The notes beneath the pieces are model-generated. The model was not told where the DNA came from and did not search any database. It saw only the letters and a list, made by a program, of their open reading frames with translations. From Promethearchaeota archaeon (GTDB lineage: Archaea; Asgardarchaeota; Lokiarchaeia; Sigyniarchaeales; SOKP01): a stretch of 42,850 nt of DNA. The stretch is from assembly GCA_013375475.1 (NCBI GenBank), contig JABXKD010000026.1, forward strand, positions 1 through 42,850, given 5' to 3'. Shown here piece after piece: positions 14,835 through 21,779 of this stretch (the stretch's first letter is position 1; every line of letters begins with the position of its first letter). A program made the translations under genes and the position numbers.

Positions 14835-16247
14835 TTATTTTTTCAGTTCCTCTTTCCATAGTCCATATTTTTTAAGGCCTTCTCTCATATCTGGTTGAAA
14901 AGGTTCTGGTGTTCCTTCAAGGAACGCTTCAACCATATCATCATTCTCAACCATCGACGAATCTCTTTTTTTCGCTTTTTCTTCAGCAAGGGAAGATATT
15001 ACCACTTTAGCAAGGGGCTGAAATTGAGGGGGTGATAGTAGTATTAATTTGCCAAATATTTGTGCTGTCTCGCAATCCCACTTGAAAACATCCTCTCTTT
15101 TTTCTTTAGGTTTAGCAGTATCAATCCCAAATTCACGACTTGTTATTAAATCGTCAAGATAACCTTGTATTGACTCAACATATTTAGGAGCTTGTTCCTT
15201 ATCAAGAAAGACTACTTTTTCAGCCCAGTTTTCGCAGTAATTACACTCATCGCACATCGAAATACAGTCTTGTTTCTTGAAGAAGTCAATAAATCCATCC
15301 AGTTTTGTATTATCTATTATCAATTTCGATTTAGATTCTTTATCGACAGTTTGCTGAAATTTTGCTTGAGGATCATTTTCAATTCCTATTGACATCGTAA
15401 AACCCTGAATGATATCAACAAGATTACCCTCATATTTTCGTGAAGAAAAAGCTTTAACTGCTCGCGTGATCCATTCAGTTGACATTCGACGCCCCGCAAT
15501 TTTAAAAGTGTCAATTCCTATTTCTTCATAATGTGAGAGATCTTCGGGGCGAATCCACCGAGCTTTGATTACTTCAGTCTTATCTGAAAACTTAATAGCA
15601 CTGCAATTGAGAATGCATGAATCTATATAGTTACCGCCTAGTTGGTGATCCCCTTGAGACGAATGCCCTAAAAGATTATAATGGTAATATCTAAAAGGAC
15701 ATTGATACAGACATCCATCAGTTAATAAAGGAACAATTTTACACTTCACAGCTTTTTGCATTTTTTCCAATGTTTTAAAGTCTCTATTAATCATTATACT
15801 GGGAGTTATTTCGTCAGCACCCAATGATTCATAGAATTTAGCTCGATTGACACTATTAACATGAGATATTGTAGACACTCGAATTTTCAAATTAGGGAAC
15901 TGTTCTTTTACAATTTGAATTAAGAATGGAATGGTTACAATAACATAATCAGATCCTATATCGCTGATCCACTGAAGATGTTCTATTAATTTTCTATGGA
16001 AAGTAGGATCATATTCCATATTGCTCATACAAGGCGCATTTAGTAAATATGAGAATTTCATTTTTTTACTATGCACTTGTTTAATATACTCAGCAATTTC
16101 TTCTTCCGTTACCTCTTTCAATAAGAACGAAGGCCTGCCATGACCTACAATAGAAAAATTACCAACACCATAAAAATCTCTTACTGGATATTTGGCCATT
16201 TCCTCTATAAGATTAAAGTCCCAATTTGTTGCTACAGTTAACTGAAT
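14835..16247 (-). CDS. U32 'peptidase' family Fe-S protein (UbiU/UbiV/TrhP superfamily) with C-terminal DUF2621/PCP_red-like domain
   Basis: GHGR, FSYLLNAPC, VST, INRDF, GCLYQCPFR, WIRPEDL, FKIAGR, CxxxCxxCxxC; the frame stays open upstream of ATG 16199 to ATT 16247 (IQLTVATNWD). Confidence 0.88.
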   Translation of the reverse strand: MQLTVATNWDFNLIEEMAKYPVRDFYGVGNFSIVGHGRPSFLLKEVTEEEIAEYIKQVHSKKMKFSYLLNAPCMSNMEYDPTFHRKLIEHLQWISDIGSDYVIVTIPFLIQIVKEQFPNLKIRVSTISHVNSVNRAKFYESLGADEITPSIMINRDFKTLEKMQKAVKCKIVPLLTDGCLYQCPFRYYHYNLLGHSSQGDHQLGGNYIDSCILNCSAIKFSDKTEVIKARWIRPEDLSHYEEIGIDTFKIAGRRMSTEWITRAVKAFSSRKYEGNLVDIIQGFTMSIGIENDPQAKFQQTVDKESKSKLIIDNTKLDGFIDFFKKQDCISMCDECNYCENWAEKVVFLDKEQAPKYVESIQGYLDDLITSREFGIDTAKPKEKREDVFKWDCETAQIFGKLILLSPPQFQPLAKVVISSLAEEKAKKRDSSMVENDDMVEAFLEGTPEPFQPDMREGLKKYGLWKEELKK

Positions 16248-16324
16248 ATTTTTCTCCCTCTTCTACCTAATTTTTTATATTTTTCTTTTGTTTATTCATT
16301 TGAATTTGAAAAAATAGAATTGTA

Positions 16325-17497
16325 CTATTTATAAGTATCAAGTCCCGCTTTACAACCCATACCTAAGAAATCAATCATGGCCCCATTATAATCATTTTCA
16401 ATTTTGTAATAGAGCCCTTCGTGATTGAAAGCAACCCCCCAGAGAAATTTACGCGAATCACTTTGGAGCGGTGTTTCGTCTACAAATTTCTTCATTAAAG
16501 GGTGAAGATGAACTGGAACTTCTTTCGGATCATCGCTTTCAATACCAAAACAGAAACGCTCAATTTTTTCTGAATCCCAGCTAAAAGTATAATTGAGATG
16601 CACCGCTTTCGTGCATCCTTCCATTGCTTCCTTTACAGCTAACTTAAATCCTAAGTCTTCTACAAGTGCTACACAATTATCATAAGTTGCCTTTGGTGGT
16701 TGTTTTAACATGAAATAGATATTCGTAGTTTTGTGCAGAAAATCAAAAGCAAATAAGCTGAAAGCAGTTAAATCGTGTTTAATTAAGTGATCTCTATATT
16801 TTTTCATACTTTCAGGAGCCGATTTCATTGAAAATATAGGTTCAATTGAACCCGGGACGATAAACACCCATATTTTTGATAATCCCGTAGTAGCATCCAC
16901 ATCGACGCCATAACCCATCAGTTGAAAAGTGTCCATAGTCTCTTGAATCATTTCATGGATCGGGTGATCATCTTTTTCAATTAATCCCTCGCTAATAGCT
17001 TTAGTATAAGGATCAGGATTATGTGGCATAAAAAATTCTACATACCTGAGTGCAACATCTCTACGCTCAACCGGTTTAGTCGTGGTTCTGATTGAAACGG
17101 GAGCTCCTATGAAAAATTTCTTGAATACATTGAAAACTTTCCGAGTCTCATTTTCATTAAAGTTAACTTCAGTGATATCGCAGAGTTTTGCGAAATCTTT
17201 AACCATCTGTTCTAAATCGTTCGTGCATTTGAAGTCTGCCTTTATCTTAGATAAATACCTATTATACTCAACATTCAAAGCTTTAAGATCTTCAATCATT
17301 GTAGGTTGAAATGCAGTTGGTGTTATTTCGAATAATGCTACAATGAGATCCATTTCACCTACCATCTTTCCTTGTCGTTCTTCACATTTAATCTCAGCTT
17401 TTTCGAAGAGTTGAGGTTTTATAACGGGTCTCACCATTTCTGGCATTCTTAAAACCACATTATCATAAAGTTCTTTTACTTCTGGTCGCCATTCCAT
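16325..17497 (-). CDS. ABBA-family soluble aromatic prenyltransferase (NphB/CloQ-like) with N-terminal DUF2621/PCP_red-like domain
   Basis: RTTTKP, DPYTKAISEGLI...HPI, GYGVDVDATTGLSKIWVF, FDFLHKTTNIYF, ERFCF, YYKIENDY follow the NphB/CloQ barrel pattern. Confidence 0.85.
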   Translation of the reverse strand: MEWRPEVKELYDNVVLRMPEMVRPVIKPQLFEKAEIKCEERQGKMVGEMDLIVALFEITPTAFQPTMIEDLKALNVEYNRYLSKIKADFKCTNDLEQMVKDFAKLCDITEVNFNENETRKVFNVFKKFFIGAPVSIRTTTKPVERRDVALRYVEFFMPHNPDPYTKAISEGLIEKDDHPIHEMIQETMDTFQLMGYGVDVDATTGLSKIWVFIVPGSIEPIFSMKSAPESMKKYRDHLIKHDLTAFSLFAFDFLHKTTNIYFMLKQPPKATYDNCVALVEDLGFKLAVKEAMEGCTKAVHLNYTFSWDSEKIERFCFGIESDDPKEVPVHLHPLMKKFVDETPLQSDSRKFLWGVAFNHEGLYYKIENDYNGAMIDFLGMGCKAGLDTYK

Positions 17498-20400: not shown

Positions 20401-20411
20401 AATTTTCACAT

Positions 20412-21779
20412 TTATTCGAGTTCTTCATGAGTATGATCATCCTCATGCCAGCAAAAAGGAAGCGCTGCAAGGAAATCTCCAGTTTCATTTTCAGCATGGA
20501 CTCTACAACCACCACCACACATATCAAGGTGATGACAAGTTGAACATTTACCTTTAACCTTTCGATCCCTGATTGCCTTAAACATTTCAGATTCCATTAT
20601 CTCTTCAAAATCTTGTTCATATACATTACCCAAGGTTAAATTAGAAGGATAATCGCAAGGGAAAAAATCACCATTAACATCGATGCCCGAGACTGAACGG
20701 CATGCTTGACAACCTACACCCCATTCTAACGCTGTTCGTTCCGTGTCATTGCGGGGGCATTCCATGAAAGGGACCATATCATATGTGTATACTTTATTAA
20801 GAAATGATCCTTCACCTTTTCTAATTGCATCAACCACATGTTTAAATTTAAAATCATAAAATTGACGAAATTTTTCATATGACAGTCCTATATCGTTCCA
20901 ATTTATCTCAGCAGTTCGTTGTTTGATAACAGCTCTAAAATATGGGATTGCACCAAACGAATCTAATTTTTTCTTAATTTCTTCTAATTCGTCAAAATTC
21001 TCTTCTTGAACTGTAGCTGTACAAATGACTAGATGACCGTATTTTAATGCTAATTTTATAGCCTTTTCAGCGGCTTCAAGTGCTTTTGGAACACCTCTAA
21101 TTTTCGCAGCTCTCTCAGGATAAACACTATCGTAGCTGATAAATACGTGATGCATTTTGGCATCTGCGCATACCCTCGCGAGTTCCTCGTCAAAGAGCAT
21201 GCCATTTGTTGAAATAGCTTGATAATATCCCTTTTCTCCACAGTATTTTATTAATTCCTTGATATCTTTTCGAAGAGTAGGCTCTCCCCCAAACCAAATA
21301 TAACACCCTCGCCGACCACGCTTTCGCAATGTCTGTTCTACATTTTCAATAATTTGAATCCATTGTTCTGTTGAGAATTCTGGACGGTTACCCATTAGTT
21401 CTGCAGCACAGTGAATACATTTTTGGTTACATCTATCACTAAGATACATAGTAAAGTGATAGACTCCAGGAGCCCACGCACCGCCGACTTCATCCCAAGT
21501 ACGTGCGAATTCTTGTCGGATTGCCGATAGTTTGATGTAGCGGTCGGTATCGATACCAATAGTTTTTAAATCTGCCACAACCGTAGGTTGAAAGGCATCG
21601 GGAGTGATTTCAAATAGAGCGGATAGCAAATCATCTTTACTTACAAATCCTGAATTCCTTAGCGTTGCGGTTTTTTCAGCAGCTTCACGCAACATTGGTT
21701 TTACTGAAGCGCGAAACCCTTCAGGAGTTAAATCGGTAATTTGTGTATATAAATCTTCAATCTCTTTATTCCATTCCAT
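20412..21779 (-). CDS. Radical SAM/SPASM protein with N-terminal DUF2621/PCP_red-like domain (paralog A)
   Basis: CNQKCIHC, GGEP, GCQAC...GDFFPC...CSTCHHLDMCGGGCR...FC; ATG at 21779 after GGTGA. Confidence 0.93.
   Translation of the reverse strand: MEWNKEIEDLYTQITDLTPEGFRASVKPMLREAAEKTATLRNSGFVSKDDLLSALFEITPDAFQPTVVADLKTIGIDTDRYIKLSAIRQEFARTWDEVGGAWAPGVYHFTMYLSDRCNQKCIHCAAELMGNRPEFSTEQWIQIIENVEQTLRKRGRRGCYIWFGGEPTLRKDIKELIKYCGEKGYYQAISTNGMLFDEELARVCADAKMHHVFISYDSVYPERAAKIRGVPKALEAAEKAIKLALKYGHLVICTATVQEENFDELEEIKKKLDSFGAIPYFRAVIKQRTAEINWNDIGLSYEKFRQFYDFKFKHVVDAIRKGEGSFLNKVYTYDMVPFMECPRNDTERTALEWGVGCQACRSVSGIDVNGDFFPCDYPSNLTLGNVYEQDFEEIMESEMFKAIRDRKVKGKCSTCHHLDMCGGGCRVHAENETGDFLAALPFCWHEDDHTHEELE

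Follow-up and report, generated by a model that had tools for sequence, protein, structure and literature searches.

One DUF2621/PCP_red-type module on four enzymes of three unrelated families in an SCP2-containing operon of Asgard archaea

What could one small protein segment be doing on four enzymes of three unrelated families that are encoded almost side by side in a single archaeal operon? The question is raised by contig JABXKD010000026.1 of a Promethearchaeota archaeon (class Lokiarchaeia), of which a stretch of 42,850 nucleotides was analysed here as a whole (the window). Its minus strand carries a tight operon, or cluster, that encodes, among other proteins, two radical SAM enzymes with a SPASM domain (rSAM-SPASM A and B), an aromatic prenyltransferase, a U32-family protein and an SCP2-type lipid-binding protein. 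A preliminary description, made by reading the letters of the window, had noticed homologous segments at the N-termini of both rSAM-SPASM enzymes and of the prenyltransferase, and at the C-terminus of the U32 protein. All four were recovered at these places, as listed below; A1 denotes a profile made of the four window copies, which are about 85 amino acids long each.

The module and its family

21513-21779, minus strand: module copy 1, N-terminus of rSAM-SPASM A; A1 E-value 3.8e-41; PF11084 E-value 0.045, positions 57-138
20134-20400, minus strand: module copy 2, N-terminus of rSAM-SPASM B; A1 E-value 5.9e-43; PF11084 E-value 2.9e-4
17237-17497, minus strand: module copy 3, N-terminus of the prenyltransferase; A1 E-value 4.1e-42; PF11084 E-value 0.0019
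14838-15086, minus strand: module copy 4, C-terminus of the U32 protein; A1 E-value 1.2e-35; PF11084 E-value 0.008

When aligned with MAFFT, the four copies proved 30-44% identical to the first sequence, with 12 columns invariant. In pairwise BLASTP comparisons they matched each other with E-values from 1.1e-30 to 5.0e-13 and scores of 45.4-90.5 bits, as opposed to a maximum of 22.3 bits in a control with 100 shuffles per pair, confirming that the four segments are homologous. The identities of the host genes were taken from Pfam scans, with NCBIfam as a second library, and the enzymes that bear the module fall into the Radical_SAM plus SPASM (twice), PTase_Orf2 and Peptidase_U32 families, bearing out the initial observation that the same module is attached to members of three unrelated families. 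A search of the entire genome (3.92 Mb in 288 contigs) with A1 yielded only the four window copies at E-values of at most 0.1, the next match covering 28 residues with an E-value of 0.17.

All four modules align to one and the same region of PF11084 (DUF2621), positions 55-138 of 139. The individual alignments run from profile position 56 or 57 to between 127 and 138, and so cover the model's conserved C-terminal ~83 positions throughout. The isolated modules score 14.2, 21.3, 18.7 and 16.6 bits, all under the gathering cut-off of 27.7 bits; a relative (P0143) reaches 27.3 bits. None of the four matches PF08369 (PCP_red, 45 positions) at an E-value of 10 or less. We also scanned singly the members of a wider alignment, A2, which comprises 47 sequences (the window's own four copies plus 43 relatives that stand alone): PF11084 was detected in 38 of the 47 (E-value at most 0.01, best 3.4e-12) and PF08369 in 17 (best 7.1e-7), and weak PF08369 matches are present in the fused relatives P0146 and P0230 as well. 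As a control for PF11084, the genome of Bacillus subtilis gave a family match, and the neighbours found in the ESM Atlas are DUF2621 clusters of Omnitrophota, Bacteroidota and Bacillota. The likeness to DUF2621/PCP_red proteins, which the preliminary description had pointed out, is real, with the window copies lying under the curated cut-off. Judged by sequence, the module belongs to the uncharacterised DUF2621/PCP_red superfamily as its long, DUF2621-type form, and constitutes a new sub-threshold branch of this known domain of unknown function. Its first ~55 residues correspond to the short PCP_red unit, and two to three extra helices complete the DUF2621-type form. Previously known members of the superfamily, including the ChlB/BchB C-terminus, 2kru and 2l09, occur either on their own, with no known function, or as the end of a single enzyme, BchB.

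The only other superfamily member in this genome is a 290-amino-acid protein (gene at 1465-2337, minus strand, of locus L025), which carries a C-terminal short PCP_red unit (G000:C199:33926-34057; PF08369 29.5 bits). Its C-terminus matches the C-terminus of ChlB (2xdq_B 443-502, E-value 0.0054) and also 2kru_A and 2l09_A, and its N-terminal part exhibits weak similarity to the FMN-binding protein 1eje_A (E-value 0.046); the protein is flavin-reductase-like.

An AlphaFold2 model of module copy 2, built on alignment A2, has a predicted local distance difference test score (pLDDT) of 93.2 and a predicted template modelling score (pTM) of 0.83, with helices at residues 5-16, 20-40, 48-58, 61-73 and 78-88, and with a bridge of two residues that links positions 2-3 to 45-46. 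The module is thus predicted to be an autonomously folding five-helix domain. The internal P-x-x-F-(R/Q/K) pseudo-repeat mentioned in the preliminary description is hinted at by hhalign, which, run on the two halves of A2, aligned them over 28 columns at an offset of ~41 residues with 64% probability and an E-value of 6.5e-5. Sequence-profile searches of the PDB with A1 and A2 returned nothing better than an E-value of 0.064, and Foldseek gave no PDB match at an E-value of 0.001 or less. In a wide structural search, AAA+ lid subdomains ranked first and were followed by the lids of MCM, ORC, BchI and FtsH, all of these matches falling in the range that is common for helical models; an AAA+ lid, however, follows a P-loop ATPase core, which the window module does not. 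Besides the AAA+ lid, which is a C-terminal helical subdomain, the nearest known structures include the histone-type helix-strand-helix unit. No BchB/ChlB chain was present among the 50 best structural matches, which is not evidence of a different fold.

Fusion partners, operon structure and distribution

How widely is the module combined with other domains? A word-indexed search for longer proteins gave 141 matches, and the 120 listed consist of 67 rSAM-SPASM, 29 PTase_Orf2 and 24 U32 proteins, with no other class among them; they are named at source as Asgard, plus one Thermoplasmata. When 1.84 billion representatives were searched exhaustively with the profile, 216 proteins came up at E-values of at most 0.001, and the 150 listed include 62 stand-alone or fragmentary forms, 31 tetratricopeptide repeat (TPR_10/12) proteins, 20 U32 proteins, 15 prenyltransferases (with the module N-terminal in 13 and C-terminal in 2), nine radical SAM proteins, two SCP2-module proteins (P0154 and P0247) and 11 others. 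More elaborate arrangements comprise a LuxC-module-rSAM-SPASM fusion (P0177), a U32-module-3xSCP2-module fusion (P0146), a U32 protein with two tandem modules (L019, from within the window's own genus and family) and a 2Fe-2S thioredoxin-like ferredoxin with two modules, and further partners are a PNPOx-like protein, HpaB_C and a class I methyltransferase. These fusion proteins have polar linkers of low complexity. For the bacterial stand-alone subfamily (A5), a search for longer fusions turned up a single protein, Formyl_trans_N plus DUF2621, which is weak evidence of rarity. The module can stand alone, occupy either terminus, be duplicated and be joined by flexible polar linkers, in line with the earlier view of a portable and autonomous unit.

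The TPR proteins among the 150 listed representatives contain four to nine stretches each that match the module profile; nine of the 31 were assigned by Pfam and the other 22 by BLAST to those nine, and the cross-matching proteins lie within P0150-P0269. The TPR_10 and TPR_12 repeats of STAND NTPases (STAND/TIR/CHAT) have a helix-P-[DE]-A-F-[RQ]-P-helix motif in common with the module, and their period of ~42 residues equals that of its internal pseudo-repeat. The cross-matches run one way, from the module profile to TPR proteins only: the TPR models of Pfam do not match the window modules at E-values up to 10, and the 50 best structural matches include no TPR protein. This likeness may be a resemblance at the level of the motif, or may reflect very remote kinship or convergence.

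The genes of the operon, with one conserved flanking gene, are as follows.

22718-24229, minus strand: B12-binding radical SAM protein (B12-rSAM-2); B12-binding and Radical_SAM
21870-22517, minus strand: small membrane open reading frame of 215 amino acids (ORF215); no Pfam match
20412-21788, minus strand: rSAM-SPASM A (20412-21779, 455 amino acids, from the MEW start); Radical_SAM E-value 3.8e-22, SPASM E-value 3.9e-11
18997-20409, minus strand: rSAM-SPASM B (18997-20400, 467 amino acids); Radical_SAM and SPASM
17534-18949, minus strand: B12-binding radical SAM protein (B12-rSAM), module-free; B12-binding and Radical_SAM
16325-17497, minus strand: ABBA aromatic prenyltransferase (PTase_Orf2); PF11468 E-value 9e-51, residues 94-378
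14835-16199, minus strand: U32-family protein; Peptidase_U32 E-value 1.1e-13
14359-14757, minus strand: SCP2-type lipid-binding protein and candidate common partner; SCP2 20.6 bits, cut-off 21.3
11553-12854, plus strand: LuxE-like acyl-protein synthetase, conserved flank; LuxE E-value 1.6e-21

In the window, the U32-module gene is immediately followed by the SCP2 gene, and in five related clusters of the window's own genus and family (L017, L096, L097, L098 and L099) the two form a single U32-module-SCP2 protein of 668-689 amino acids, the SCP2 part of which is 50-78% identical to the free SCP2 protein of the window (78% in L017). A module-free U32 paralogue lies beside the U32-module-SCP2 genes. 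In L096 (G070:C15, 9398-10975 and 11007-12515), two additional rSAM-SPASM-SCP2 fusions, which are module-free, are located between the B12-rSAM and the prenyltransferase genes. Enzymes of the operon are therefore found joined to SCP2 either directly or via the module, and the module-bearing operon always contains SCP2. The B12-rSAM and SCP2 proteins of the window operon are themselves module-free by both Pfam and the A1 profile. The assignment of the SCP2 gene, which scores slightly under the Pfam cut-off, is accompanied by 101 homologues that are 58-91% identical to it, several of them named SCP2 at source; the SCP2 family is thus highly conserved.

The second library adds only distant names for the enzymes. 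The best NCBIfam matches of rSAM-SPASM A are NirJ1/AhbD/AhbC-like and far under their cut-offs, and the best match of the B12-rSAM at 17534-18949 is TIGR04072, "lipid biosynthesis B12-binding/radical SAM protein", with 271 bits against a cut-off of 360. The sole match of the U32 protein is TrhP, which is weak (E-value 9.6e-9, 34.5 bits against a cut-off of 534); two four-cysteine motifs, CX3CX27CX3C and CX3CX2CX2C, could be read from its translation. The closest database proteins are named at source as Asgard, including Lokiarchaeota and Promethearchaeota, and one is 97% identical over the module.

With A1, the module was detected in 14 of 41 related genomes (that of the window, G000, counted), mostly as four to five clustered copies, and with A2 in 14 of 201 genomes drawn evenly across the phylum; 12 of the latter 14 belong to the 40 other genomes of the window's family. 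In two genomes the cluster is present twice, and the module copies there number 10 and 8. The operon is conserved in some Asgard genomes: in the related loci examined, the gene order runs from B12-rSAM-2 through the membrane ORF, rSAM A, rSAM B, B12-rSAM, prenyltransferase and U32 to SCP2, and the cluster is often flanked by LuxE and a family 2 glycosyltransferase (GT2). Among orthologues, the module is 58-92% identical and the rest of each protein 67-93%, ranges which show that similar selection acts on the module and on the catalytic domains. The SCP2 family was found in 14 of the 201 genomes, 13 of which also contain the module; two genomes are discordant, with one weak match of each kind, and 186 have neither. 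The conserved synteny and the joint presence of module and SCP2 in 13 of the 201 genomes bear out the proposal, already made in the preliminary description, that these genes form one system.

Outside the Asgard archaea, stand-alone homologues of 86-93 amino acids are common in Omnitrophota, where they were collected from 70 loci (L026-L095, from records of Omnitrophota and of "Planctomycetales" metagenome-assembled genomes).

One related locus departs from the standard gene content: in L020 (G013:C6, 7926-9089 and 9080-10462), a CCG/4Fe-4S dicluster protein and an FAD_binding_4 oxidase replace the prenyltransferase and the B12-rSAM, and sit between the module-tagged rSAM and the module-tagged U32 genes, beside a short SCP2 gene. 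Upstream, B12-rSAM-2 is kept next to the membrane ORF in L017, L020 and L021, and ORF215 itself is kept in five of six related loci (L017, L018, L020, L021 and L022). Its invariant residues are P24, R33, Y45, G49, S51, F53, P55, H70, L71, D73, I74 and Y89. Conservation is confined to the membrane part, where R33, H70, D73 and Y89 are invariant, and the tail is unconserved; ORF215 was accordingly set aside as a candidate soluble scaffold, and could serve the pathway as an anchor or as a membrane-bound enzyme.

The surroundings of the operon (window 9147-12854 and 24963-26087, both on the plus strand) are rich in envelope- or lipid-like genes, identified by Pfam as a CDP-alcohol phosphatidyltransferase, a GT2 glycosyltransferase, the LuxE-like acyl-protein synthetase and a sulfotransferase. 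The LuxE-like gene also flanks the cluster in L017 and L021, and in L017 the synteny covers LuxE, GT2 and the sulfotransferase. On both sides the operon is flanked by paralogous membrane proteins with an N-terminal zinc ribbon (M-x-C-P-N-C-G), at 12951-13535 and 13607-14167 on the minus strand, at 24378-24884 on the plus strand and at 8114-8875 on the minus strand, the last of which has its zinc ribbon at the C-terminus instead. Homologues of these zinc-ribbon proteins flank the cluster also in L017, L021 and L096.

Possible roles of the module

Nine positions are common to all four partner classes (W3, P19, A34, E35, R41, D50, P60, F63 and L71), and the module is non-catalytic, none of Ser, Cys, His or Lys being conserved family-wide. 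Two roles that such a domain might play were discarded: a carrier domain with covalently bound substrate was rejected because there is no family-wide conserved Ser, Cys or Lys, and a membrane-binding tag is unlikely since all four modules are acidic (isoelectric points of 4.56-5.16).

The combination of U32 and SCP2 proteins has a precedent. In PMC6747719, UbiT is described as an SCP2 protein and UbiU and UbiV as U32 proteins, a ubiT-ubiU fusion is reported, the proposed task of the SCP2 protein is to hold hydrophobic intermediates for a number of enzymes, and the SCP2 domain of UbiJ is said to organise a multi-enzyme complex; PMC12139934 names SCP2 only within a list of lipid-transfer protein classes. 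The window operon resembles the UbiT/UbiU/UbiV set of Proteobacteria, which is characterised by O2-independent hydroxylation of a prenylated quinone precursor, in that its U32 gene adjoins the SCP2 gene, relatives fuse the two, and the CX3CX27CX3C motif is present. It differs in that there is no orthology, the window U32 protein matching neither the UbiU nor the UbiV model of NCBIfam, in that its enzymes are rSAM-SPASM and B12-rSAM proteins and a soluble ABBA prenyltransferase, and in that the host is an anaerobic Asgard archaeon. The enzymes of the Ubi system are not known to share an appended domain.

We suggest, with a probability of roughly 0.4, that the module is a non-catalytic adaptor that couples the soluble enzymes to a hydrophobic intermediate borne by SCP2, in a metabolon similar to those of UbiT and UbiJ. 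What speaks for such a role is the combination of a portable non-catalytic domain, its confinement to one operon, the constant presence of SCP2, the fusions to SCP2 and the Ubi parallel. By analogy with UbiT/UbiU/UbiV and UbiJ, the operon would modify a hydrophobic substrate carried by SCP2, either a prenylated aromatic compound or a lipid. The domain would have been recruited, in some Asgard archaea, as a pathway-specific appendage on four soluble enzymes, and the module would let a tagged enzyme engage the complex of SCP2 and substrate, or assemble with other tagged enzymes around it, so that intermediates would pass from enzyme to enzyme without ever leaving the carrier. Where an enzyme is fused to SCP2 directly, the module could be dispensed with. 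The natural SCP2 fusions favour this SCP2-centred version of the docking idea, and docking onto an SCP2-centred assembly is plausible, with the binding itself putative: the predicted complex of SCP2 (A4) with the module (A2), computed without controls, gave ipSAE values of 0.00 and 0.01 (mark 0.32), which speak neither for nor against binding.

It should be kept in mind that a number of observations weigh against the adaptor role. None of the tests in this analysis established a partner for the module, and the co-occurrence of module and SCP2 is trivial, since both lie in one cluster. The modules and SCP2 are all acidic, SCP2 having an isoelectric point of 4.65, and the operon's B12-rSAM enzymes lack both the module and an SCP2 domain. 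In the 48 of the 70 Omnitrophota-type loci that are at least 9 kb long and were used for neighbourhood analysis (the 22 shorter ones being left out), the stand-alone homologues have no conserved neighbourhood, any one neighbour family occurring in at most nine loci, so that the wider family need not act with SCP2. The positions common to all partner classes are few and look mostly structural, while each class has a strongly conserved signature of its own, a pattern more in keeping with co-evolution of the domain and its own enzyme than with an interchangeable tag that has a single common docking face. Finally, the rSAM enzymes and the prenyltransferase have no disordered linker, and in a full-length model of rSAM B (pTM 0.84) helix 5 extends to residue 98, a prediction compatible with a fixed intramolecular arrangement.

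The last three features, along with the finding that module and catalytic domains are conserved to about the same degree, would be expected if the module were a substrate lid, closing a hydrophobic pocket within its own enzyme or in trans, as the C-terminal region of BchB/ChlB does; the same cap would then recur because the enzymes of the pathway handle one bulky hydrophobic scaffold. The relevant BchB helix, which we take to lie inside PF08369, belongs to the only family member with solved structures, the ChlB/BchB C-terminus, to which the short PCP_red copy of this genome also aligns (2xdq_B 443-502). In dark protochlorophyllide reductase, the C-terminal helix of BchB covers the protochlorophyllide (Pchlide) cavity (PMC4071322). 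A lid is harder to reconcile with a module that occupies either end within one enzyme family, the prenyltransferases (13 N-terminal and two C-terminal), with tandem duplication, frequent long polar linkers and abundant stand-alone forms, and with fusions to the non-enzymatic SCP2; moreover, in the full-length rSAM B model the pLDDT of the module drops from 93-98 to 82-88 and residues 90-100 average 62. We regard a lid as unlikely, if still a serious contender. Self-association, in which modules would form homo- or hetero-oligomers and cluster the four enzymes independently of SCP2, appears distinctly unlikely, given that no conserved surface is common to the partner classes and that the structural matches are in the range common for helical models.

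The preliminary description had also considered that the module might bind a peptide, in the manner of the recognition elements (RREs) of pathways for peptides that are made by ribosomes and modified after translation (RiPPs). In a RiPP-like pathway, the rSAM-SPASM enzymes would act as cross-linkers, the B12-rSAM enzymes as methylases, the prenyltransferase on a peptide and the U32 protein as leader peptidase, with the module as their shared leader-peptide recognition element. This option is disfavoured, and we hold it to be very unlikely: the module is predicted to consist of five helices and not of a winged helix plus a three-stranded sheet, no PqqD-type family appeared in the Pfam scans, and the intergenic gaps of the operon contain no candidate precursor ORF on the operon strand. 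The constant SCP2, the enzyme-SCP2 fusions and the flanking LuxE, GT2 and CDP-alcohol phosphatidyltransferase genes point to a lipid and not to a peptide, and the methyltransferase, HpaB_C, PNPOx-like and LuxC partners fit small-molecule chemistry. The module could, alternatively, recruit a common ferredoxin or flavodoxin to Fe-S and radical enzymes, a role that would suit its association with rSAM-SPASM enzymes, a U32 protein with cysteine motifs, the 2Fe-2S thioredoxin-like ferredoxin, PNPOx-like and HpaB_C proteins, BchB and the flavin-reductase-like protein of this genome. Such a dock for redox partners is scarcely probable, however, as the prenyltransferase, the class I methyltransferase, the formyltransferase and SCP2 carry the module yet need no electrons, whereas the B12-rSAM enzymes need electrons and lack it.

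Comparison with other shared domains, and significance

Non-catalytic domains shared by the enzymes of one cluster are known from RREs, from the docking domains of polyketide synthases and non-ribosomal peptide synthetases, and from dockerins. The module resembles the RREs most directly in being a small non-catalytic domain found on several unrelated enzymes of one cluster, including the N-terminus of rSAM-SPASM proteins, and it differs from them in its all-alpha prediction, in the lack of a PqqD match and of a precursor peptide in the operon gaps, and in a cluster built around SCP2. What looks new here is the occurrence of such an arrangement in an apparent lipid or prenyl-aromatic pathway around an SCP2 carrier, in Asgard archaea. 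Literature searches, which did not extend to supplementary files, found no description of four module copies on three enzyme families in one operon, and no paper on the domain or on the Asgard cluster; PCP_red is mentioned only in articles about unrelated topics, and PF08369 a single time in each of three comparative-genomics papers. A bolder formulation, which we consider possible though on the doubtful side, would make DUF2621/PCP_red the lipid-pathway counterpart of the RRE, docking unrelated soluble enzymes onto loaded SCP2 to form a soluble assembly line by which anaerobic Asgard archaea would make a novel lipid that is prenylated, methylated, hydroxylated and perhaps quinone-like.

Few means are known by which insoluble intermediates are passed between soluble enzymes; examples are the metabolon of UbiJ/UbiK, the carrier proteins for acyl and peptidyl groups, and the RREs of peptide pathways. 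Here, one domain is present on four enzymes and is elsewhere fused to the carrier or replaced by a fusion of enzyme and carrier, which makes the question testable with a few small proteins. The findings also mark out a previously undescribed biosynthetic cluster of the Asgard archaea, a group with a lipid and quinone biochemistry that matters for models of eukaryogenesis, and they provide a foothold for the function of DUF2621/PCP_red proteins, which are widespread in anaerobic bacteria. If the module indeed recognises the carrier, a widespread but uncharacterised domain would gain its first function, and BchB's C-terminal domain could be explained as what is left of this ligand-capping or hand-over role.

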